This document shows positions 7,767 to 64,000 of a DNA stretch of 64,000 nt, one piece after another (the stretch's first letter is position 1; the number at the start of each line of letters is the position of its first letter). The notes beneath the pieces were generated by a model. That model was not told where the DNA came from and ran no database searches. It saw only the letters and a list, made by a program, of their open reading frames with translations. The position numbers and the translations under genes were made by a program. Location: assembly GCA_946533675.1 (NCBI GenBank), contig CAMNBZ010000003.1:33014-97013 (forward strand), read 5' to 3'. Origin of the DNA: an uncultured Verrucomicrobiota bacterium (GTDB lineage: Bacteria > Verrucomicrobiota > Kiritimatiellia > RFP12 > UBA1067).

Positions 7767-7800
7767 GAGCGCGGCAGAAATGCCGCGCTCTGCGTTTTTT
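7767..7800 (+). terminator. rho-independent terminator
   Basis: A 10-bp GC stem, GAGCGCGGCA (GAAA) TGCCGCGCTC, is followed by TGCG and TTTTTT at 7795-7800. It lies 29 nt after the stop codon. Confidence 0.8.
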
Positions 7801-7808
7801 GTGGAAAG

Positions 7809-8100
7809 GCTAGATAGTCTAGAACGAAACGGGGCGGTGGCCCCGTTCCTAATCTAGAACGCCCGCTGCGCGGGCTAACCTAGAGCGCGCGGCACGGCCG
7901 CGCTTGTCTAGAAAGTCTAGATTAGCTCGCGCAACGCGCGAGCGTTCTAGATTAGCCCGCACTCCGTGCGGGCGTTCTAGATTAGGGGCGGCACACTTGC
8001 CGCCCCGTTCTAGCCAGTCTAGCCAGCCGCCCCGTTCTAGCTTCTCTAGCTAGTCTAGCCAGTCGCCCCGTTCTAGCTTCTCTAGCCAGCCGCCCCTCTC
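7809..8100. repeat. CTAG-rich hairpin mosaic array A (BIME-like)
   Basis: About 16 CTAG tetramers are present. Six different 7-9 bp GC hairpins occur (for example AACGGGGC-GGTG-GCCCCGTT and GCCCGCAC-TCC-GTGCGGGC). They are separated by the 13-mer CTAATCTAGAACG in the left half and its reverse complement CGTTCTAGATTAG in the right half. The switch point is TCTAGAAAGTCTAGA at about 7908-7922. Confidence 0.85.
7818..8014. repeat. 197-bp direct repeat, copy 1 (partner 8920-9116)
   Basis: Hand alignment shows the same length and only two mismatches: A at 7827 versus G at 8929, and ACTCCGTG versus ACTTCGTG. Confidence 0.85.
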
Positions 8101-8133
8101 TCGCCGCGCGCGTAAGATTTCGAAAATTCCGGC

Positions 8134-8169: not shown

Positions 8170-8863
8170 ATGAAAGCAAGAAAAATATCGTGGAATCAGA
8201 CGGATTGGCGCAAATTATACTTCTATCAAAAAGCCGATGCCCTCTATCAGCTGACCGTCGCTTTCTGCCGCCGCTTTCTGCCCGCGCATGGCGACCGGAC
8301 GGTCGATCAAATGGTCCAGGCCGCGCGCTCCGGAAAGCAGAATATCGTCGAAGGTTATGCCGATGGCGTCACGTCCAGTGAAATCGCCATTAATCTCCTG
8401 AATGTCGCGCGCGGCAGCATCAAGGAGCTGAAGGAAGATTATCTCGATTATCTCAAGGCGCACGCACAAGCTGATGTGCTGGACGGCGCGCCATCCGCGC
8501 TATGCCAAAATGCTCGCGTTCTGCCGTGCGCACAATGCGCTGAAGGACTATGAACCGCTCTTCGGCAGATGCGATGATGAAACGCTGGCGAATTGCGCCA
8601 ATACGCTCTGCCACATGATCGACCGAATGATGGTGTCGCATATCCGCAAAATGCAGTCGGAATTTGTCGAGCTGGGCAGCGCGCGCGAGCAGATGCGTGA
8701 CGCGCGCCAGGAGCGGCGGCTGGAGCAGCGGGATGACGCGCGCGAAGCGCCGAAGCTGCGTATGCTGCTGGCGCAAAGGGACAGGGAGATCATGCTGCTG
8801 AATTTGGCAATCAACCGGCTGCGCGGCGAGATCAACGCGCTGAAAGCGCAGCAGGGTAGGTAG
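8170..8863 (+). pseudogene. four-helix-bundle protein (23S rRNA IVS protein family with suffix domain), split by a +1 frameshift near 8462-8473
   Basis: Frame 1 (8170-8553) gives YQKADALYQLTVAFCRRF...DRTVDQMVQAARSGKQNIVEGY...ARGSIKELKEDYLDYLKAHAQ. Frame 2 (from about 8465, ORF 8474-8863) continues the family pattern: KLMCWTARHPRYAKM...ETLANCANTLCHMIDRMM...KMQSEFVELGSAREQMRDARQERR. This could instead be a sequencing indel. Confidence 0.6.
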
Positions 8864-9170
8864 GCTAGAACGCCCGCTTCGCGGGCTAATCTAGAACGCT
8901 CGCACGGGGTGCGAGCTAATCTAGAACGGAACGGGGCGGTGGCCCCGTTCCTAATCTAGAACGCCCGCTGCGCGGGCTAACCTAGAGCGCGCGGCACGGC
9001 CGCGCTTGTCTAGAAAGTCTAGATTAGCTCGCGCAACGCGCGAGCGTTCTAGATTAGCCCGCACTTCGTGCGGGCGTTCTAGATTAGGGGCGGCACACTT
9101 GCCGCCCCGTTCTAGCTTCTTTAGCTTGCCGCCACGTTCTAGCTAGTCTAGCCAGCTGCCCCGTTCTAGC
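8864..9170. repeat. CTAG-rich hairpin mosaic array B (BIME-like)
   Basis: About 14 CTAG tetramers. The architecture matches array A, with two extra hairpin units at the 5' end. Confidence 0.85.
8920..9116. repeat. 197-bp direct repeat, copy 2 (partner 7818-8014)
   Basis: See copy 1. Confidence 0.85.
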
Positions 9171-9282
9171 ATCTCTTCTGCGCAAATCTAAATTTCCCGT
9201 TGCCTTTTCAGACCAGTTGTGATAAAGTGTTCAAAGACTGTTAACAGGGTAGCTGATAGCTTGTCAATAAGCCATCGGCAAC

Positions 9283-45030: not shown

Positions 45031-48000
45031 ATGACGAACCTGAGAAACCTGGTCGCCCTCGGCGCGACAATGGCCATTGCGGTCGTTGGTGTTCATAGTT
45101 TTGCACAAGACGATCTCGACGATCTGCTCGCGGATCTTGAAAGCGAGAGCGCGGCGGCACCAGCCGAAGCGTCTGCGGACGAGGACGCGGCCGAAGCCGA
45201 GGAGCCTGCGGCGGCGGAGCCTGCGGCCGAGGAACCGGCGGAGGCCGAGGAACCTGCGGCGGCGGAGCCTGCGGCCGAGGAACCGGCAGAGGCCGAGGAA
45301 CCTGCGGCGGAAGAGGCGGCAGCCGAGGAAGAGCCGGCTGAGGAGGAATCCGCGGCCGAGGAACCCGAAGCTGAAGAGCCCGCGGCCGAGGAACCCGCTG
45401 AAGCCGAGGAACCTGCGGCCGAGGAACCCGCTGAAGCCGAGGAACCGGCGGTCGAGGAACCCGAAGCTGAAGAGCCTGCGGCCGAGGAACCCGCTGAAGC
45501 CGAGGAACCTGCGGCGGCGGAGGCTGCGACCGAGGAAGGGCCGGCTGAAGCCGCGGACGCGAATCTGCTGTCGCTGCTGGCCGAAACCGATGCGGGCGTT
45601 GCGGCGAGTCCCGCGGCACCGGCGGCGGAGAAGCCGGCCGAACCGGCCGCCGAACCGGCTGAAACGCCGGCCGCCGTCGCCGCTGTCGAACCGGCTCCCG
45701 CGCCTGCGGCCGAACCGGCTCCCGCGCCTGCGGCCGAACCCGCTCCCGCCGCCGCTCCGGCGCCCGCTCCTGCGCCGAAGTACGATGGGCCCGACGCGGA
45801 ACTGCTGGCCAACCTGTCGGCGACCGAAAAGCTGCGCCGCGAGGCGTTCGACATCCAGGCGCGTCGCGAGATCAGCGAGGCGCGCGCCTACATGGCGAAC
45901 GAGGAATATCTCGACAGCGTCAAGCACTACCGTATCGCGCTCAAGCTGCTGAACGACGCGCCGTCCTCCGAGGGGCTGCGCCGCGAATGCCAGCAGGGCG
46001 TCGCCGAGGGCTATTTCCGCGCGGCGTTCCAGGAAGAGTCGATCGGCCGTCGCGCGAAGGCGATCGACCTGATGGACAAGGCGCTCGCCGCCCGTCATCC
46101 GAAGGCGCGCCGCCAGCTGGAGGCGTGGAAGAATGCCGACGATCCCGAGGCGAACAAGGTCGATCTGTCCGAGATCAAGCACCGTCGCAACGACGCGGAG
46201 TACAAGGATCAGCGCGCGACGAACCTCCAGCACCTCAAGCGCGCGCGCCAGTTCCTCGGCAGCAAGGAGCTGAGCCGGGCGCTGGACGAGTGCGAACTTG
46301 TGCTGGTGAACGATCCCTACAACCAGGAGGCGATCCGTCTGCGCGAGAAGATCCAGAAGAAGCGCCACACGATCCTGATGCAGGAGCGCAAGGCGGCGCG
46401 CGAGGGCATGATCGCCGACGTCGACCAGGCGTGGCGCCCGGTGTATGCGGTCGATGCGCGCGAACTGGACGAGGTCGCGACGCAGACGGGCAAGACGCCC
46501 GGCGTCAACGGCGATCCGGAACGCAGCCTGGAGCAGAGCGTCATCAAGCGCATGAAGGAGATGCGCCTGCCGGCGATCTCGTTCAAGCCGCCGGCGACGA
46601 TCGTCGACGCGCTCGACTTCTTCCGCCAGGCCTCCAAGGACTTCGACCGTCCCGACATCCCGCTGGAGCAGCGCGGTTTCGACATCGTGTTCCTCCCGCC
46701 GGAGACGCTGCATGCGGCGGCGGACAGCGGCGAAGACGAGGCCGAGGGTTTCGGCGCGAGCGATGACGACGAGGCCGCGGGCGCGCAGGAAGGCCTGCCC
46801 GTCATCCCGATGATCGCCGCGAGCGACATCACGTTCTACGACGCGCTGAAGCTCGTCTGCGACACGGTGAAGTACAAGCCGCAGGTCAAGGGCAAGATCG
46901 TCATGGTCATGCCCCAGGGCGCGACGACGGAAGAAATGGTCACGCGCAGCTATCCGGTGCTTTCCACCTTCATGGAGCGCATGGACTCGGCCTCGAGCGA
47001 ACTGAAGGAGATGCGTTCGCAGGGCTTCGGCAGCTCCAACCGCCGCGCCAACGACGACGCCGGCGAGAACCAGGAGAAGGACTGGAAGGAGTTCTTCACG
47101 GAACTCGGCGTGAAATGGCCGGAAGGCTCGTCGATCATGTACATCAAGACGATCGGCAAGCTGCGCGTCAAGAACACGTACGAGAACCTCGCCGAACTCG
47201 AGAAGGCGCTGACCGAAATGAACGCCGACCCGAAGCTGATCGAGATCGAGACGCGCTTCGTGGAAGTCTGCCAGGACGACCTCAATTCGCTCGGCTTCGA
47301 GTGGATCCTCAACAGCGACTACTCGATCGGTCTGGGCAAGCACGTGTCGCGCGCGCTCGGCGTCCGTAACGGCACGTGGGGCTCGAACACCGGTTCGCGC
47401 ACGGTCACGCAGGAGCTCAACTACACCACCGATACGCTGAACGGCAGCACGATCCCGACGATGCGGTCCGTCACCACCGATTCCACCTCCGCGACGCGGG
47501 TGACCTACGCCAATTCGCGCGGCGCCAGCTGGATCCGCAACGGGGACGGCCACGGCAAGGTGGGCCTCAGCGCGTTCGGCGGCGACTCCGACCAGCAGAA
47601 CGGCATGCGCTATCTCTCGACGCTGTCGAACCACATCTCGGGCGAGAGTGGGTCGAACAACGACCAGTTCATGCGCGTGAACGCGTTCTTCGGCAACGCG
47701 GACCTGTCGATGATCCTGCACATGCTCGCGCAGCGCAGCGACACGGACCTCCTCTCCGCGCCGAAGGTGCTGACGCGTCCGGGCGTGGAGGCGGTCATGA
47801 AGGTCGTCACCGAGTACATCTACCCGACCGACTACCAGGTGCAGCTGCAGTCCAGCTCGTCCTCGTCCTCGGGCAACGGCGGCGGCAGCCAGTCGGCGAT
47901 TCTCGCGGTCGTCGAACCGCGCAGCTTCACGATGCGCGAGGTGGGCGTGATCCTCGACGTCACCCCGACGCTGACCGACGACGGCAACCTGATCGACCTC

Positions 48001-48573
48001 GATCTCAAGACGCAGGTCGTGGACGAGCCGACGTGGAAGAACTACGGCATGCGCATTCCGTTCACGGGCAACGCCTCGTCGCTTCAGAACTTCACCGGCC
48101 TCGGCGAGATCTTCACGGGCCTGAGCGAAATCCTGGGGGCGACGGGCACGGCGCTCAGCGATTCCGCGAAGGCGCTCTTCGCCCAGTCGGCGATGGATGC
48201 CGCGAGCAACGCGCTCGACAGCCTGACGGATTCGTCGAACGAAAACCTCACCTACTACGAAGCGCCGATGGAGCAGCCGTTCTTCCACGTCCGCTCGATC
48301 GAGTCGCAGGTGTCGGTCTATCCGGGCGCGACGATCGTGATGGGCGGCCTCATCACCGAGCAGCGCAAGGCGATGGACGACAAGATTCCGTTCCTCGGCG
48401 ACCTGCCGTTCATCGGCCGTCTCTTCCGCAGCCATGCGGAGCAGACGAACAAGCGCAACCTGCTGATCTTCGTGACGACGCGTCTCGTCGACGTGCGTGG
48501 CCGCGAGGTGCACATCTCGGCGAACGACACGCCCGCCCCCGAAGTGGTCGCGGCGCCGACCGAGGAGGACTGA
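45031..48573 (+). CDS. pilQ: type IV pilus / type II secretion family secretin (PilQ-like) with long N-terminal A/E/P-rich repeat region
   Basis: The signal peptide is [25 protein letters not shown]. The C-terminal secretin domain reads [20 protein letters not shown]...[55 protein letters not shown]. Confidence 0.92.
45160..45780 (+). repeat. coding tandem repeats (A/E/P-rich low complexity) in the secretin N-terminus
   Basis: A 48-nt unit ([16 protein letters not shown]) is repeated at 45196-45243 and 45244-45291. A 33-nt unit, GCCGAGGAACCCGCTGAAGCCGAGGAACCTGCG, occurs at about 45385, 45418 and 45481. A 24-nt unit, GAACCGGCTCCCGCGCCTGCGGCC, occurs twice at about 45690-45740. Confidence 0.8.
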
Positions 48574-54324: not shown

Positions 54325-57261
54325 ATGGATATCATCATCAAGAATGCCCGTGTGCACAACCTCCAGGGCATCGACGTCACCATCCCGCGCAATTCACTGA
54401 CCGTCGTGACGGGGCTTTCCGGCTCGGGCAAGTCCTCGCTCGCGTTCGACACGCTCTATGCGGAAGGGCAGCGCCGCTATGTCGAATCGCTTTCCGCCTA
54501 CGCGCGCCAGTTCCTCGACCGCATCGAAAAGCCGGATGTCGAAAAGATCGAGGGCCTGTCGCCCGCCATTTCCATCGAGCAGCACACGACGAGCGGCAAT
54601 CCGCGCTCCATCGTCGCGACGGTGACGGAGATTCACGACTACCTGCGCATTCTCTACGGCTCGGTCGCGACGGCGCACTGCCCGCACTGCGGCCGGCCCG
54701 TGACGAAGCAGTCCGCCGAGCAGATCGTCGATGCGCTCCTCAAGCGCCCCGGCAAGGTGATTCTTCTCGCGCCCGTCGTAAAGGGCAAGAAGGGCCGCCA
54801 CGAGGAGACGTTCGCCGCGCTCACGCGCAACGGCTTTGCGCGCGTGCGCATCGACGGGACGATGTATCCGCTCGACGAGCTGCCGGAACTGGACAAGAAG
54901 AAGGCGCACAACATCGAGGTCGTCGTCGACCGCCTCGTCATCCCGGCCCCAGCGGAAGATCCGTCGTCGAACGCGGAGCGGAGCAAGTCGCAGGCGAGCG
55001 ACGCGGAGCGTTCGACCTCCGCATCCGCCGCTTTCCGCACGCGCCTGACCGATTCGGTGGAATTGGCGCTCAAGACCGGCCACGGCATTCTGGTCGTCGA
55101 GCGGCTGGAGGAAGAAAGCGGATCGTCTGACGCGCAGCCGGAATCAGGAATTTTGTCTGACGCGGAGCGGAGCGAGTCGCAGGCGAGCGACGCGGAGCGT
55201 CAGACCACCTATTCCGAACTCAACGCCTGCGTCGACTGCGGCATCTCCTTCGACGAGCTCAAGCCGCGCGCCTTCTCGTTCAACTCGCCGTTCGGCGCGT
55301 GCCCGACGTGCGCGGGCCTCGGCCAGCTCTACTATTTCGACGAAGACCTCGTCGTGCCGGACAAGACGCTGCCGCTCGAAGAGGCGATCCATCCGTGGCG
55401 GCGGCTCGGCGGCCAGATGGCGATCCTCTACCACAAGGAGCTCCTGTCCGAGATCGCGCGTCAGAGCGGCGTCGATCTGCGCACGCCCTACAACAAGCTG
55501 CCCGCGAAGTTCCGCCACGACCTGATGCACGGCTTCAAGACCAATCTCGTCCTCAGCTGGCGGCGCGTGGACCGTCCGTTCGAGGGCGTCCTCGCCGCGC
55601 TCAAGCGCAAGATGGAGGAGGCGACGGACGACGAGGTGCGCGCGAAGTACGAGGCGTACCAGAATTTCCGCACGTGCCCCGACTGCCACGGCGCGCGCCT
55701 GAGGCCCGAATCGCGCGCGGCGACGGTGGCGGGCCGGACGATCGTCGAGGTGATGGCGATGCCGGTCGGCGCGGCGCTCGCCTTTTTCAACGGCCTGCCC
55801 GACTTCCCGGGGATGCGCGAAATCCTCAAGGAGATCCGCCGCCGCCTCCAGTTCCTGCTCGACGTGGGGCTCGACTACCTGACGCTCGACCGCGCCTCGG
55901 CGACGCTGTCGGGCGGCGAGATGCAGCGCATCCGCCTCGCGACGCAGATCGGCTCGGGGCTGACGGGCGTGCTCTACGTCCTCGACGAGCCGACGATCGG
56001 GCTGCATCCGCGCGACAACGAGCGGCTGATCGCGACGCTGAAGGGGCTGCGCGACCGCGGCAACACGGTCGTCATCGTCGAGCACGACGAGGAGATGATG
56101 CGCGCGGCGGACTACATCGTGGACCTGGGGCCGGGCGCGGGGCGCGAAGGCGGCCGGGTGATGTACCAGGGCGACTTCAAGGGCCTCAAGAAGGCGAAGT
56201 CGCTCACGGCCGACTACCTGACGGGCCGCAAGAAGGTCGTGGCGGGGGATCGTGGAGACGGTCGAACGGCGTTCGACCGATTCCTCGTCCTCTCCGGCTG
56301 CACGGAGCACAACCTGAAGAATATCACCGTCCGCATTCCCGTCGGCGCGTTCACGGTCGTGACGGGCGTCTCGGGCTCGGGCAAGTCGACGCTCATCGAC
56401 GAGACGCTCAAGCGCGCGCTGATGCGCGAATTCTACCACGCCAAGGCGGTGCCGGGCAAGTTCAAGAAGCTCACCGGCATCGACAACTTCGACAAGGTGA
56501 TCGAGATCGACCAGTCGCCGATCGGCCGCACGCCGCGCTCGAACCCCGCGACGTACGTCGGCTTCTTCTCGGAGATCCGCGACCTCTTCGCCAAAACCGA
56601 GGCGGCGCGCGCGCGCGGCTACACGGCGGGGCGCTTCTCGTTCAACGTGAAGGGCGGGCGGTGCGAGGTCTGCGGCGGCGACGGCCTCAAGAAGCTGGAG
56701 ATGAGCTTCCTGCCGGACGTGTACGTGACGTGCGAGCAGTGCGGCGGCAAGCGGTTCAACGCCGAGACGCTGGAGGTGACGTACGGCGGAAAGAACATCG
56801 CCGAGGTGCTGGAGATGACGGTCGCGGAGGCGGCGGAGTTCTTCGCGAAGGTGCCGAATCTCCGGCGCAAGCTCCAGACGCTCGTGGACGTGGGGCTCGG
56901 CTACATCGCGCTCGGCCAGTCGGCGACGACGCTCTCGGGCGGCGAGGCGCAGCGCATCAAGCTCGCGACGGAGCTGTCGCGGCGCGCGACGGGGCGCACC
57001 CTGTACCTCCTCGACGAGCCGACGACGGGCCTTCACTTCGACGACATCGCGAAGCTGATGAAGCTCCTCGCGCAGCTGCGCGACGCGGGCAACACGGTCG
57101 TCGTGATCGAGCACAACACCGACGTGATGAAGTGCGCGGACTGGATCATCGACCTCGGGCCGGGCGGCGGCGACGCGGGCGGCGAGCTCGTGTGCGAAGG
57201 GCCGCCCGCGAAGATCGCCGCGTGCGCGCGTTCGGTGACCGGCCGGTTTCTGGGGGTCTAG
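54325..57261 (+). CDS. uvrA: excinuclease ABC subunit A, carrying two in-frame repeat insertions
   Basis: VTGLSGSGKSSLAFDTLYAEGQRRYVESLSAYARQFL and LSGGEMQRIRLATQIGSGLTGVLYVLDEPTIGLH are present. So are VTGVSGSGKSTLI, two zinc modules (C-x2-C), and LSGGEAQRIKLATEL...LYLLDEPTTGLHF. Confidence 0.98.
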   Translation: MDIIIKNARVHNLQGIDVTIPRNSLTVVTGLSGSGKSSLAFDTLYAEGQRRYVESLSAYARQFLDRIEKPDVEKIEGLSPAISIEQHTTSGNPRSIVATVTEIHDYLRILYGSVATAHCPHCGRPVTKQSAEQIVDALLKRPGKVILLAPVVKGKKGRHEETFAALTRNGFARVRIDGTMYPLDELPELDKKKAHNIEVVVDRLVIPAPAEDPSSNAERSKSQASDAERSTSASAAFRTRLTDSVELALKTGHGILVVERLEEESGSSDAQPESGILSDAERSESQASDAERQTTYSELNACVDCGISFDELKPRAFSFNSPFGACPTCAGLGQLYYFDEDLVVPDKTLPLEEAIHPWRRLGGQMAILYHKELLSEIARQSGVDLRTPYNKLPAKFRHDLMHGFKTNLVLSWRRVDRPFEGVLAALKRKMEEATDDEVRAKYEAYQNFRTCPDCHGARLRPESRAATVAGRTIVEVMAMPVGAALAFFNGLPDFPGMREILKEIRRRLQFLLDVGLDYLTLDRASATLSGGEMQRIRLATQIGSGLTGVLYVLDEPTIGLHPRDNERLIATLKGLRDRGNTVVIVEHDEEMMRAADYIVDLGPGAGREGGRVMYQGDFKGLKKAKSLTADYLTGRKKVVAGDRGDGRTAFDRFLVLSGCTEHNLKNITVRIPVGAFTVVTGVSGSGKSTLIDETLKRALMREFYHAKAVPGKFKKLTGIDNFDKVIEIDQSPIGRTPRSNPATYVGFFSEIRDLFAKTEAARARGYTAGRFSFNVKGGRCEVCGGDGLKKLEMSFLPDVYVTCEQCGGKRFNAETLEVTYGGKNIAEVLEMTVAEAAEFFAKVPNLRRKLQTLVDVGLGYIALGQSATTLSGGEAQRIKLATELSRRATGRTLYLLDEPTTGLHFDDIAKLMKLLAQLRDAGNTVVVIEHNTDVMKCADWIIDLGPGGGDAGGELVCEGPPAKIAACARSVTGRFLGV
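54967..55015 (+). repeat. palindrome-ended element 1 inserted in frame in uvrA
   Basis: TCGAACGC ...GGAGCGGAGCAAGTCGCAGGCGAGCGACGCGGA... GCGTTCGA. It encodes SNAERSKSQASDAERS. Confidence 0.75.
55155..55205 (+). repeat. palindrome-ended element 2 inserted in frame in uvrA
   Basis: GTCTGACGC ...GGAGCGGAGCGAGTCGCAGGCGAGCGACGCGGA... GCGTCAGAC. It encodes SDAERSESQASDAERQ. The core is near-identical to element 1. Confidence 0.75.
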
Positions 57262-57370
57262 GGGGCTAGAACTCTAGGCCTCTAGGACTCTAGAATTCTA
57301 GAATAGCGCGGCTTGCCGCGCGGTCTAGAACAGCGAGCGTAGCGAGCGGTCTAGGATTCTAGAATTCTAG
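57258..57370. repeat. CTAG-rich array C downstream of uvrA
   Basis: About 10 CTAG tetramers occur in ~113 bp (TCTAGG, CTAGAA, TCTAGAATTCTAGA). The hairpin GCGCGGC-TTG-CCGCGC and the direct repeat AGCGAGCG-T-AGCGAGCG are also present. The array starts at the uvrA stop codon. Confidence 0.8.
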
Positions 57371-57391
57371 GAGCCGGGAAGCGCCGATTTT

Positions 57392-60967: not shown

Positions 60968-62575
60968 ATGAAGGTTTATGCAGCGTTGGCGATCTTCGCG
61001 TTCGCCGTCTTGGCCGCTTTCGCCGTCTGGTTCGGAGGTCTGAACCAGGACGAAGGCTGGTATCTCTATGCCGCGCAGCTCGTCGGCGAGGGGAAGATGC
61101 TGTACCGTGACTTCGCCTTTACGCAGGGCCCGCTTCTGCCGAAATTCTACAAGTCCTTCGCGTGGGCCTGGGCGGACGGGCGCGGGCTCCTGGGCGCGCG
61201 GATTTTCACGGCAACGATCGGGCTCGGCGGGATGATGCTGGCGGCGGGGCTGGCGCGGATTCTGGCGGGGCGCCGTTGGGCGTCGGTCGCCGGCGTGATC
61301 GCGTTTCTGCTCTTGGGGTGCAACCTGTACCACATCTATTATACGGCCATCCCGAAAACGTATGCGCTCGCGCAGCTGTGGGTGATGGTGGGGTTTTGCC
61401 TGCTGGCCATTGGGTTGGCCGAACGCAGTTCGGCCATCAATGCTAGTCCTGATGGCCGAACTGCCAGTCCTGATGGCCGAACTGTGTTCGGCCACTCCTT
61501 CTTAGTCGGCGCGGGAATGGCGCTCGGATATGCGGCGGGGACGCGCCTGAGCCTCGGGATTCTGCTCGCGGTGTGCGGTCTCGGGCTCCTTCTCAACTTC
61601 AAGCGCTTCGGCTGGAGCTTCCTCTGGTTCGGGCTCGGCGGCACGCTGGCGCTGGCGCTCGTCTACGGCCCGTTCCTGCTCGATGCGGGCGCGCGCGAGG
61701 GCCTGGTGGCCGCGCAGCGCTACCACGCGGCGCGCGGCGGTTTTGACGCGGTCTTCACGGTCGGCAGCCTGAGCCGGCTCGTGCGGTGGTACCTGCCGGT
61801 TTTCGTTTTGCTGGGGTTGGGGTTGGCCGAACGCAGTTCGGCCATCTTCACGAGAAGTTCAGTCCTCTTCACGAGCCGTTCGGGCCTCTTCATGCGTGAA
61901 GATGGTCAGGCTGTGCCCGACCAATCCGCAGCCCGCAACTTTCTCCTGTGGCTGATGGGCCTTGGCTTTCTGGCGGTGTTCGCGGTGCAGCTGGCGGCGC
62001 CGCATCCCTACGAAGATTACCAGGTGCCGGTGATGGGGCTTCTGGCGGTCATCGCCGCGGTGCTCGTCTCGGACCTGCGCGGCGCGCCGCTCCTCGCGCT
62101 CGGCCTTGCGTGGGGGTGCAGCTTCGGCTCGCCGCTTCTGGAACAGTGGATGACGAACGGGCAGGACCGCTTCTGGACGCTCAAGAAGGAAAAGAGCGAA
62201 CTTGCGCAGCTGCGGGACGCGGCGCGGCTCGTCGAGGCGCTCGATCCGGGCGGGAAGACGCTCTTCACGCAGGATACCTACCTCGCCGTCGAGACGGGCC
62301 GCCGCGTGCCGGACGGGCTGGAGATGGGGCCGTTCAGCATCCTGACGGACGACGCATTCCGCGCGCTCATCGACCGCGCGGAATGCCCCGTCGCGGCGCT
62401 GAGCGGCTACACGTTCGCCATCAACCCTCCCGTCTGCGACGAGCGGCCGTTCGACGTGCAGATGGACTTCTGGAGCCGCGTCAAGACGCGCTACGACCGC
62501 GTGACGGTGCTGAACGACTTCGGCCAGCACGCGACGCCGCTCCTGATTCTCAAGCGAAAGGCGGCGGCGGAATGA
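60968..62575 (+). CDS. polytopic membrane glycosyltransferase, ArnT/PMT (GT39/GT83)-like, with two in-frame repeat insertions
   Basis: The N-terminal TM helix is followed by the D-E motif loop (GGLNQDEGWYLYAAQLVGEGKMLYRDFAFTQGPLLPKFY). Multiple hydrophobic helices and a soluble C-terminal domain follow. The stop overlaps the dxs ATG. Confidence 0.82.
   Translation: MKVYAALAIFAFAVLAAFAVWFGGLNQDEGWYLYAAQLVGEGKMLYRDFAFTQGPLLPKFYKSFAWAWADGRGLLGARIFTATIGLGGMMLAAGLARILAGRRWASVAGVIAFLLLGCNLYHIYYTAIPKTYALAQLWVMVGFCLLAIGLAERSSAINASPDGRTASPDGRTVFGHSFLVGAGMALGYAAGTRLSLGILLAVCGLGLLLNFKRFGWSFLWFGLGGTLALALVYGPFLLDAGAREGLVAAQRYHAARGGFDAVFTVGSLSRLVRWYLPVFVLLGLGLAERSSAIFTRSSVLFTSRSGLFMREDGQAVPDQSAARNFLLWLMGLGFLAVFAVQLAAPHPYEDYQVPVMGLLAVIAAVLVSDLRGAPLLALGLAWGCSFGSPLLEQWMTNGQDRFWTLKKEKSELAQLRDAARLVEALDPGGKTLFTQDTYLAVETGRRVPDGLEMGPFSILTDDAFRALIDRAECPVAALSGYTFAINPPVCDERPFDVQMDFWSRVKTRYDRVTVLNDFGQHATPLLILKRKAAAE
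61412..61495 (+). repeat. hairpin/tandem repeat insertion 1 inside the glycosyltransferase gene
   Basis: The 27-mer GGGTTGGCCGAACGCAGTTCGGCCATC at 61412-61438 contains the hairpin GGCCGAAC-GCA-GTTCGGCC. A 21-nt tandem, AGTCCTGATGGCCGAACTG, follows at 61445 and 61466. A second hairpin, GGCCGAACTGTGTTCGGCC, is also present. Confidence 0.8.
61820..61905 (+). repeat. hairpin/repeat insertion 2 inside the glycosyltransferase gene
   Basis: The identical 27-mer occurs at 61820-61846. It is followed by reiterated CTTCACGAG units and the palindrome TCTTCA-TGCG-TGAAGA. Confidence 0.8.
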
Positions 62576-64000
62576 TGACGGCGCTCGAGATCCGCAACCG
62601 CATCCTTGCGGCCGTCTCCCGCAACGGCGGGCACCTCGCCTCGTCGCTCGGCGCGGTGGAGCTCGCGATGGCGCTCGCGCAGACGTTCGATCCCGAGAAG
62701 GATCGCATCGTCTGGGACGTCGGCCACCAGGCGTATGCGTGGAAGATCCTGACGGGCCGCGCCGACCGCTTCGACACGCTGCGGCGGCTGGACGGCCTCT
62801 CCGGCTTTCCCAACCCCGCGGAGTCGCGCGCGGACGCGGCGGTGGCGGGCCATGCGGGCGTGGCGATCTCGGTGGCCGAGGGCATGGCGGCGGCGCGGAC
62901 GGCGCGCGGCGGCGACGAACAGGTCGTCGCGGTGGTCGGCGACGCGTCGCTGTCGAACGGCACGAGCCTGGAGGCGCTCAACAACTGCGTGAACGCGGAC
63001 GGGAAGATCATCGTCATTCTGAACGACAACGAGATGTCGATCTCGAAGCCGACGGGCGCGCTTTCGCGCTACCTCGGCCGGCTCATCGCGGGCCGCCGCT
63101 ACAACCGCGTGAAGGCGGCGGTCAAGGCGGTCGAAAAGGCGGTCGGCATGTCGTTCCTCAACAAGCCCATCCGCCGCATCAAGGCGTTCATCAAGCGGAT
63201 GCTGATCGGCCACGCCTATTTTGAGCAGATGGGGCTGCGCTACATGGGGCCGGTGGACGGCCACGACGTGGCGGCGCTCACGGCCGCGCTCGACGTGGCG
63301 AAGAAGGACCGCCGCTCGGTGCTCCTGCATGTCGTCACCGTCAAGGGGCGCGGCTACGCACCGGCGGTGAAGGACCCGGAAAAGTGGCACGGCGTCGGCG
63401 CGTTCACGATCGCCGCGTCGCCGGCGGACGACGCGCGCGCGGCCGCGCCGGCCGAGCGGCAGACGACCTGGAGCGACGTGTTCGGCGCGGCGCTCACGGC
63501 GGCGGCGGAGAAGGACCGGCGCATCGTGGCGCTCACGGCGGCGATGAAGGACGGCACGGGCCTGACGGAGTTTGCCGCGCGCTTCCCGCGGCGCTTCAAG
63601 GACGTGGGCATTTCCGAAGGCCACATGGTCGCGTACGCGGCGGGGCTCGCGGCCGGCGGGATGCGCCCCGTGGTGGCCGTCTATTCGACCTTCCTGCAGC
63701 GCGCCGTCGACCAGGTCATGCACGACGTGTGCATCGCGAAGCTCCCGGTCGTCTTCTGCGTCGACCGCGCGGGCGTGGTGGGCGCGGACGGCGTGACGCA
63801 TCAGGGCGTCTTCGACATCGCGCTCCTGCGCGCGCTGCCGAACCTGACGATCTGCCAGCCGAAGGACGCCGACGATCTCGCCGCGCTCCTCGACGAGGCG
63901 CTGCGGCGCGACGGCCCGACGGTGATCCGCTATCCGAGGGGATTGGCTGGGCACAGCCCAGCCCTCTCCACGGGCAGCCCCGTCCTCTCCCCGCGTGGAG
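62572..64000 (+). CDS. dxs: 1-deoxy-D-xylulose-5-phosphate synthase, 3'-truncated by the window edge
   Basis: My own translation of frame 1 gives MMTALEIRNRILAAVSRNGGHLASSLGAVELAMAL...DRIVWDVGHQAYAWKILTGR...GHAGVAISVAEGMA...VVAVVGDASLSNGTSLEALNN. It continues with ILNDNEMSIS...HVVTVKGRGY...ISEGHMVAYAAGLA...VYSTFLQRAVDQVMHDV...VFCVDRAGVVGADG.THQG. No stop occurs before base 64000. Confidence 0.95.
   Translation, partial: MMTALEIRNRILAAVSRNGGHLASSLGAVELAMALAQTFDPEKDRIVWDVGHQAYAWKILTGRADRFDTLRRLDGLSGFPNPAESRADAAVAGHAGVAISVAEGMAAARTARGGDEQVVAVVGDASLSNGTSLEALNNCVNADGKIIVILNDNEMSISKPTGALSRYLGRLIAGRRYNRVKAAVKAVEKAVGMSFLNKPIRRIKAFIKRMLIGHAYFEQMGLRYMGPVDGHDVAALTAALDVAKKDRRSVLLHVVTVKGRGYAPAVKDPEKWHGVGAFTIAASPADDARAAAPAERQTTWSDVFGAALTAAAEKDRRIVALTAAMKDGTGLTEFAARFPRRFKDVGISEGHMVAYAAGLAAGGMRPVVAVYSTFLQRAVDQVMHDVCIAKLPVVFCVDRAGVVGADGVTHQGVFDIALLRALPNLTICQPKDADDLAALLDEALRRDGPTVIRYPRGLAGHSPALSTGSPVLSPRG

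Follow-up and report, generated by a model that had tools for sequence, protein, structure and literature searches.

The window analysed here, a 64-kb stretch of contig CAMNBZ010000003.1 from an uncultured bacterium of the Kiritimatiellia, contains a complete uvrA gene in which two short and almost identical hairpin-bounded segments are embedded in frame (Table 1). The product of the gene matched the Pfam families UvrA_inter and UvrA_DNA-bind as well as the UvrA chains 2R6F, 3PIH and 3ZQJ in PDB (E = 0), and an identical protein is present in rumen metagenome assemblies and in the Kiritimatiellae metagenome-assembled genome (MAG) GCA_002449695.1. The two segments share a 36-nucleotide (nt) core, GGAGCGGAGC[AG]AGTCGCAGGCGAGCGACGCGGAGCG, that occurs twice in the window, both times on the + strand and with a single difference (A/G) between the copies; in 100 dinucleotide shuffles the expected number of occurrences was zero even when three mismatches were allowed. 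Each core is bracketed by inverted-repeat arms of 9 nt that pair perfectly and stand 33 nt apart. The two copies of the element are 97% identical, and their stems differ at two base pairs, both of which are fully compensated. These results bear out the initial annotation, which had reported two in-frame elements of about 50 nt with a shared core in uvrA: the elements are 51 nt long, the core is 36 nt and the open reading frame (ORF) of 978 amino acids (aa) is intact. The inverted repeats of 8-9 nt that it had described were also perfect, with the correction that the first arm is 9 nt long and not 8.

Perfect 9-nt hairpins were common in the window (52 observed against about 38 in shuffles), and mini-palindromes with loops of 3-5 nt were only about twofold enriched (16 versus 8.8). 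Given that a lone 9-nt hairpin is a common finding, significance was placed on the shared core and the two compensated stem pairs, and a chance origin of the repeats was set aside on the shared core and the matched arms rather than on the hairpin alone. An assembly artefact was excluded, as these sites, with their in-frame variants, were found again in assemblies of independent origin (NCBI, ENA, JGI and Logan).

Each of the 51-nt segments is a composite, in which a 21-nt perfect mini-palindrome (9-bp stem, GGA loop) is split by a 30-nt module bounded by direct repeats of 10-11 nt. At site 1 the module consists of one direct repeat and a 20-nt unique part and is followed by the second copy of the repeat. 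Site 2 is an array in which a partial copy of the left arm and a 21-nt module precede the full element; the additional 21-nt module results in periodic units of 30 and 60 nt.

Table 1. Positions in the window of uvrA, of the two hairpin-bounded segments and their parts, and of other repeats.
Feature	Position	Strand	Evidence or remark
uvrA coding sequence (host gene)	54325-57261	+	2937-nt ORF, 978 aa; translation, Pfam and PDB matches
Site-1 block homologous to site 2	54955-55020	+	overruns the hairpin by about 11 nt (left) and 4-5 nt (right); direct-repeat family here reaches 55027
Element copy 1 (site 1), 51 nt	54966-55016	+	core and inverted repeat; encodes SNAERSKSQASDAERS
Copy 1 left arm, GTCGAACGC	54966-54974	+	inverted repeat; joined to the right arm by GGA alone in L014
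Copy 1 right arm, GCGTTCGAC	55008-55016	+	inverted repeat
Copy 1 core, 36 nt	54975-55010	+	
Site-1 30-nt module	54971-55000	+	precisely missing from allele L014
Module direct repeat, ACGCGGAGCG	54971-54980		
Module 20-nt unique part	54981-55000		
Second copy of direct repeat, ACGCGGAGCG	55001-55010		
Site-2 array	55117-55205	+	partial left-arm copy, 21-nt module, then copy 2
Partial left-arm copy, GTCTGACGCG	55125-55134		
21-nt module, CAGCCGGAATCAGGAATTTTG	55135-55155		
Element copy 2 (site 2), 51 nt	55155-55205	+	core and inverted repeat; encodes SDAERSESQASDAERQ
Copy 2 arms, GTCTGACGC / GCGTCAGAC	55155-55163 / 55197-55205	+	inverted repeat
Copy 2 core, 36 nt	55164-55199	+	
Copy 2 direct repeats, GACGCGGAGCG	55159-55169 and 55189-55199		
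Mini-palindrome in uvrA, about residue 646	56259-56279		CGGTCGAAC-GGC-GTTCGACCG
CTAG-rich array, uvrA stop to recA	57262-57375		TCTAGAATTCTAGAAT ... ATTCTAGAATTCTAG, enclosing GC hairpins
Membrane-protein gene	60968-62575	+	no Pfam match
Mini-palindromes in membrane-protein gene	61416, 61474, 61824		three, 21 nt, perfect, in frame; TGGCCGAAC-NNN-GTTCGGCCA
Notable repeat stretches in membrane-protein gene	61412-61500, 61820-61912		mini-palindromes, then 21-nt in-frame units (TCTTCACGAG...)
DXS gene	starts 62572		runs off the window
Hypervariable in-frame segment of DXS	63940-64000		L005:12410-12500
Direct repeats of about 245 nt	7800-8110 and 8860-9180		94% identical; arrays of differing GC-rich hairpins
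PF05635 gene between these repeats	8170-8863		apparently frameshifted; 23S-rRNA-intervening-sequence-type four-helix bundle
ORF with tandem repeats	45031-48573	+	
Tandem repeats of 15-18 nt in this ORF	45114-45596		encode an Ala/Glu/Pro-rich low-complexity segment

Natural alleles were compared within the 90%-identity protein cluster to which the window UvrA belongs (15 members, 11 of them full length). The full-length members measured 951, 968, 977-979 or 997 aa, all of the length differences fell at the two sites and the reading frame was kept in 11/11. Allele anatomy was read from the DNA of eight alleles. In L014, site 1 consists of the 21-nt perfect mini-palindrome only (GTCGAACGC-GGA-GCGTTCGAC), the rest of uvrA differs from the window by 0.5% and the 30-nt gap is the sole uvrA indel between them. 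Given that the module is present in all other alleles, L014 is most simply explained by a precise loss between the direct repeats. With the site-2 modules designated A (TCTGACGCG), B (the 30-nt module) and C (CAGCCGGAATCAGGAATTTTG), the array reads A-C-A-B-tail in the window, L002, L014 and L017, A-B-C-A-tail in L012 (leaving an empty mini-palindrome, GTCTGACGC-GGA-GCGTCAGAC), A-C-A-B-C-A-B-tail with two units in L013 and A-B-tail in L016; in L015/P0127 and in the P0132 protein the array is wholly missing (GAGGAAGAA-CAGTCGACC-ACC, protein EEEQSTTYSEL). The steps between alleles were 30 nt or multiples of three, and the module moved between successive copies of the repeat. Although only about 0.5% apart in the rest of uvrA, the window, L012 and L014 have three different configurations, and the insert region was more polymorphic than the remainder of the gene (15 variable columns per 90 compared with 2-6 elsewhere). 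No single deletion from the filled alleles yields the site-2 empty allele (GAAGAA-CAGTCGACC-ACC), and a reconstruction of the full history failed.

When UvrA orthologues were aligned, both inserts were missing from other phyla and from most Kiritimatiellae, including the nearest sister clusters P0137-P0144 (91-94% identity, about 925 aa), which read VIPCD-RTRL and VEWVGDG-ETTFSELN at the two sites. The inserts are lineage-specific, as the initial annotation had supposed. A homologous 51-nt element was found at the same two loops in several rumen Kiritimatiellae lineages with 80-85% identity, and the occupancy of the sites varied between lineages. The element is present at both sites inside an identical 60-nt block in L026, whereas in L027 site 2 holds the full element and site 1 just a mini-palindrome (GTCTGGCGC-GGA-GCGCCAGAC). 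Site 2 contains three tandem units in L028 and a 51-nt copy about 65% identical to that of the window in L029, and L030 carries a copy at site 1 alone. The homologous copies in the more distant lineages indicated that the element predates this species.

The length of UvrA in related rumen Kiritimatiellae varied between 892 and 1066 aa, and indels were concentrated at five hot spots (window residues about 141, 210-235, 266-292, 489 and 641-647). Unrelated repeat peptides (NSTLQLHSPTP, GRVGDASLP, GSGVRGQ, HEPRTTN and QSNNQT) reappear at separate hot spots and in separate lineages. Site 1 of L007 has a (GTGGTTC)n...(GAACCAC)n hairpin, and in L008 the hot spot close to residue 489 is occupied by a AAGAACGCA-type hairpin. 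Only the window, L012 and L014 have a perfect mini-palindrome near residue 646; the left arm in other alleles is CGGCCGAGC or CGGCCGAAC, and a run of (ACCACGA)n heptamers occupies this place in the L008 orthologue.

The homology between the two sites of the window gene is longer than the hairpin. In a local alignment the site-1 block matched an L016-type site-2 allele over 65 nt and overran the hairpin by 11 nt on the left (AAGAT.GTCGTC) and by CC.CC on the right (ending GACC.CC), and the identical block of L026 takes in the CACC that belongs to the native site-2 codons for Thr-Thr-Tyr. Homology that continues past the hairpin into the flanking codons argues for a segmental copy within the gene and not for transposition of a unit delimited by inverted repeats. 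The sequences fit a site-1 block that was copied from the site-2 region together with a few flanking codons, site 2 being the presumed source.

Given that the copies in the window are so similar, a recent transposition to another place ought to show. With up to three mismatches allowed, the core was found in the window at the two uvrA copies and nowhere else, a blastn-short search (word size 7) of the window and related loci gave no further copy, and exact matches in the window to the 11-nt centre of the mini-palindrome, ACGCGGAGCGT, were confined to uvrA. A covariance model of the element (R1, filters off) recovered copies 2 and 1 in the window at 79.7 and 78.3 bits with the next best match at 17.8 bits, and all strong hits of the model in 142 kb of related loci were located at uvrA site 1 or 2. 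In a collection with one genome per GTDB species, a 21-mer of the core was found only in uvrA of Kiritimatiellae RGIG4421 and in three armless single matches, a 24-mer of the core gave two uvrA alleles and one unrelated sequence between xseA and xseB in JGI metagenomes, and the element was not found in viral contigs.

Matches of 21-26 nt in an Actinomycetota MAG, a Streptomyces contig, a 'Levyibacteriota' sigma-factor gene and soil-like contigs lacked the arms and were taken as chance or unrelated. Some GC-rich unrelated contigs share 24-34 nt of the core (CCCCACGGGAGCGAGTCGCAGGCGAGCGACGCTC) without arms (L009/L010:5128-5151, L011:810-833 and L003:4879-4904); the L010 match sits between xseA and xseB beside a GGGGGAAAC-ATG-GTTTCCCCC mini-palindrome, and the 26 nt in L003 lie within a sigma-factor-like gene. 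The sharing of the core by these contigs may be due to chance or to a distant relation to the element.

These searches bear on the idea that the segments represent a tiny non-autonomous mobile element, similar to Rickettsia palindromic elements (RPEs), transposable elements of the miniature inverted-repeat type (MITEs) or small dispersed repeats (SDRs), that was moved by a trans-acting, hairpin-recognising enzyme and landed twice in tolerant loops of uvrA. The palindromic ends, the in-frame insertion in an essential gene, the presence/absence polymorphism and the occupation of different sites in different species would all be compatible with this idea, as would the other small repeat peptides at several UvrA hot spots of the clade (NSTLQLHSPTP, GRVGDASLP, HEPRTTN) and the second family of repeats (CCTCTYCACGRG units), which is found in two nearby genes of the window. 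The 10-nt direct repeat around the 30-nt module resembles a target-site duplication, but the repeat of 10-11 nt flanks the inner 20 nt of the module and not the whole hairpin, and it is equally a possible substrate for slippage. Against the idea, no copy was found beyond uvrA in the collections or loci searched, the arms differ between copies and are hence not conserved terminal repeats, the homology between the sites passes the arms into native codons, and a length of 51 nt compares with about 150 bp for RPEs. Neither a transposase domain (ten ORFs scanned) nor an ORF similar to the REP-associated tyrosine transposases (RAYTs) of repetitive extragenic palindromic sequences (REPs) was detected among the window ORFs in a scan that was not exhaustive. 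Among the readings at the DNA level, an RPE- or MITE-like element mobilised in trans is the least well supported on present data, and we consider it quite improbable. The initial annotation had likened the elements to RPEs, a likeness that calls for the core to recur elsewhere in the genome; with the core at the uvrA sites only, the reading as a mobile family fails on the data at hand.

The positions of the inserts in the protein were examined by comparison with Geobacillus UvrA (2R6F), in which chain residues 230-259 correspond to window residues 207-291, leaving about 55 extra residues in two blocks, one placed after VVDRLVIP and the other before TTYSELNACVDCG. The elements had earlier been assigned, after VVDRL and before the Cys pair, to segments longer than in E. 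coli UvrA, a placement that the comparison confirmed. The Cys pairs C119/C122 and C302/C305 enclose the two sites, which belong to the UvrB-binding domain; this domain comprises residues 129-255 in M. tuberculosis UvrA (PMC3167621). In an AlphaFold2 model of UvrA obtained from 28 sequences, the predicted local distance difference test (pLDDT) score was 90-95 in the core of the UvrB-binding domain, 58-59 at residues 211-230 and 40-55 at residues 261-290, and the stretches of low pLDDT were flanked by strand 194-206 and helix 224-251 in one case and by strands 255-261 and 293-297 in the other; the alignment with 2R6F breaks at the same place. The insert sites are thus predicted to be disordered loops of an otherwise well-predicted UvrB-binding domain, in line with the surface-loop positions that the initial annotation had suggested looking for. 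Site 1 stops three residues ahead of the invariant R240...E246 motif (RLTDSVE), which we take to correspond to UvrB-contact residues.

It could be argued from this location that selection acts on the protein, the inserts being Ser/Asp/Ala/Glu/Arg-rich flexible linkers beside the UvrB-contact helix that might modulate the UvrA-UvrB interaction or help to evade an inhibitor, with the palindromy of the DNA as an incidental property. Both sites are in the UvrB-binding domain, with site 1 ending next to the R240...E246 helix, the polymorphism of the region exceeds that of the rest of the gene and all alleles are in frame. However, the compensatory changes track base pairing and not amino-acid similarity, empty alleles and empty sister species exist, and the segments are predicted to be disordered. 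Similar hairpin repeats in an unrelated membrane protein and in DXS nearby point to a process at the DNA level and also count against selection on the protein, which we regard as a very unlikely explanation.

The pairing of the hairpin was examined by folding and by covariation. On the + strand, copy 1 folds with -28.8 kcal/mol, which is not better than shuffles (z = -1.16), and copy 2 folds with -30.2 kcal/mol, which clearly beats shuffles (z = -3.46). The covariation set consisted of 13 distinct copies from five lineages in a gap-free 51-nt alignment; this is a small number of independent lineages, with related sequences that also served to derive the structure. Standard pairs were present in 96.6% of the cells, both sides had changed in 7/16 pairs, including 5/9 pairs of the outer stem, and the observed covariation or pairing was reached by 0/500 shuffles, with all slid controls far lower. 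By our count G.U cells were more frequent than C.A cells (16 vs 3), which means that standard pairs are more numerous on the + (mRNA) strand than on the - strand. Among the alleles within the species, the site-2 stem was perfect wherever the module lies inside the hairpin, and the site-1 stems contained an uncompensated C.A in three alleles with the right arm GCATTCGAC and a G.U in three alleles.

The strength of the covariation across species makes one alternative a serious rival, namely that the hairpin is a sense-strand nucleic-acid structure maintained by selection, with the repeat dynamics secondary. Within the uvrA mRNA such a structure could, for example, adjust translation, the decay of the message or the way in which the UvrB-binding domain folds during its synthesis. 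The double-changed pairs, which neither the shuffles nor the slid controls matched, and the fold of copy 2 are in accordance with such a role, the divergent copies of L029 and L030 keep both the 51-nt length and the pairing, pair 23-29 is seen as U.G, C-G and U-A, all of which are valid in RNA on the + strand, and the site-2 stem stays perfect around the module. On the other hand, the element is dispensable: conspecific alleles lack site 2 or the site-1 module and the nearest sister clusters lack both, and dispensability within a species counts against an essential function. Both copy number and position are variable (either site alone, both sites, or three units in tandem), the site-1 stem mismatches of several alleles are uncompensated, copy 1 folds no better than shuffles, and the covariation comes from few independent lineages with a structure taken from the same sequences. 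A known structured RNA family was ruled out, as Rfam gave no family in 54800-55400 at E ≤ 1 and one tRNA as the only gathering-level match in the whole window. Taken together, we judge selection for the hairpin to be serious as a rival but unlikely.

We favour, with moderate confidence, the reading that a mini-satellite unit, hairpin-bounded and in frame, resides in uvrA and that the two segments are copies of it, as opposed to insertions of a mobile element that ranges over the genome. Replication slippage and short-range template switching would be promoted by the hairpin and the direct repeats, and would both copy the unit locally and restore the complementarity of the arms. Template switching is known to create perfect stems and multi-base compensatory changes (PMC8794818), and repair of this type would explain why the stems differ between sites and species and yet stay paired. 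The host presumably puts up with the element since it sits, at both sites, in a disordered loop within the UvrB-binding domain, and selection on uvrA would purge the variants that are not a multiple of three. The site-1 alleles with C.A or G.U pairs count in favour of the mini-satellite unit, as they indicate that the stems are not strictly protected within the species.

Several points weigh against this reading. The structure is conserved more strongly than a purely neutral passenger would predict, the L029 copy is only about 65% identical but keeps 16/16 pairs, and the excess of pairing on the + strand hints at a constraint at the RNA level. A blastn-short search of the window and related loci for a donor of the 20-nt unique part of the module, direct or reverse-complement, gave just 13-14-nt matches at chance level. 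Template switching is here an inference, and distant copies may exist beyond the window, the related loci, the GTDB representatives and the JGI metagenomes.

The uvrA unit was compared with several known systems. RPEs are about 150 bp long and form ten families, with 44 insertions in unrelated genes of R. conorii (PMC10969869). The uvrA element is similar to them in being a peptide-coding palindromic repeat that is lineage-specific and lies in frame in a housekeeping gene at a position compatible with the fold. The RPE-like behaviour originally proposed thus held for frame, palindromy, loop location and lineage specificity, but not for the rest: RPEs are dispersed, whereas the uvrA element forms no dispersed family and has all its copies in two loops, its arms are variable and its copied block runs past the hairpin. 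It is also smaller, 51 nt (17 aa) compared with a class of about 100-150 bp with a conserved peptide. MITEs differ from it in that the arms of the uvrA element vary between sites and species and the homology between its copies continues 5-11 nt beyond the arms. Integron attC sites were considered because the arms GTCGAAC/GTTCGAC match 6/7 of RYYYAAC/GTTRRRY by eye, but were rejected given the conserved ORF and the lack of an integrase or cassette context.

The likeness to coding mini-satellites, or in-frame variable number tandem repeats (VNTRs), which change by slipped-strand mispairing, lies in the units of 30 and 60 nt, the polymorphism between strains, the precise loss between direct repeats and the one to three units at site 2. 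Unlike these, the uvrA unit is closed by a covarying 9-bp hairpin that is conserved across species as the sequence diverges, and although site 2 is a tandem array, the site-1 copy is located 189 nt upstream in another loop. Template switching at quasi-palindromes explains perfect stems that differ by multi-base compensatory changes as well as short-range copying, but it has been described as a general mutational process in RNA genes and genomes (PMC8794818) and not as a persistent, expandable element in a coding gene. The REPs are short GC-rich hairpins in which structure matters more than sequence (PMC3116915). The uvrA element shares this property with REPs and with the REPIN-RAYT system, which are, however, extragenic, highly repeated and RAYT-linked, whereas the uvrA element is intragenic, in frame and present in two copies. 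The SDRs of heterocystous cyanobacteria, the subject of work by Elhai et al. in 2008, are reportedly a few tens of nt long, hairpin-forming, nested and associated with heptamers, with hundreds of dispersed copies per genome. The nested 21- and 30-nt pieces of the uvrA element and the heptamers that relatives carry at comparable sites, such as (GAACCAC)n and (CCCCGCT)n, are reminiscent of SDRs, but the uvrA element is confined to one gene in all data searched.

Other repeats are present in the neighbourhood (Table 1). In the membrane-protein gene, conspecific alleles have segments replaced or shortened by in-frame indels, and the L017 allele carries a 42-nt in-frame insert near 61280 and a compensatory arm change, GGCTGAAC/GTTCAGCC. 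The DXS gene of the window strain contains the mini-palindromes GGCTGGGC-ACA-GCCCAGCC and TGGCCAAGC-TGT-GCTTGGCCA in its hypervariable segment, with CCTCTCCACGGG units akin to those in the membrane-protein gene next to it; the corresponding place is occupied by heptamers in L014, (CCCCGNA)n, and in L017, (CCCCGCT)3. The length of the array between uvrA and recA varies among strains, some of which carry extra genes between uvrA and recA. The direct repeats of about 245 nt flank the PF05635 gene, and their hairpins have stems of 6-10 bp and loops of 3-4 nt and are punctuated by TCTAGA or CTAATCTAGA. The tandem repeats at 45114-45596 show many in-frame indels relative to strain L016. The repeats in the neighbourhood, with the indel hot spots and recurring repeat peptides of the UvrA orthologues, suggest a tendency of the lineage as a whole.

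As a wider and tentative proposal, which we think more probably wrong than right by a good measure, rumen Kiritimatiellae may carry an undescribed class of ultra-small, structure-conserved, in-frame hairpin elements that spread over short range, with a 'private' family in each gene or neighbourhood. The candidate families are the 51-nt element of uvrA, the TGGCCGAAC-NNN-GTTCGGCCA mini-palindromes and CCTCTYCACGRG units of the membrane-protein and DXS genes, and at least four repeat peptides at the five hot spots of the UvrA orthologues. Such families might be driven by a dedicated hairpin-processing activity or by a replication or repair system unusually prone to template switching, and the uvrA copy may in addition have been co-opted as an mRNA structure. 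We found no paper that describes such repeats in Kiritimatiellae.

The in-frame palindromic repeats known in essential genes come mainly from Rickettsia and a small number of MITE families and are dispersed there, whereas the uvrA unit is confined to one gene, polymorphic within the species, expanded in tandem and copied between loops, with its pairing kept as the sequence drifts. The natural allele series, which includes empty sites, the mini-palindrome only and one to three units, is ready for experiments. Should the hairpin be under selection, uvrA would contain a conserved RNA structure within its coding sequence. If local copying is true, the uvrA unit would be a clear natural example of template switching and slippage that build and maintain a structured insert in a conserved protein, and a source of rapid length variation in the UvrB-contacting domain of a DNA-repair protein.

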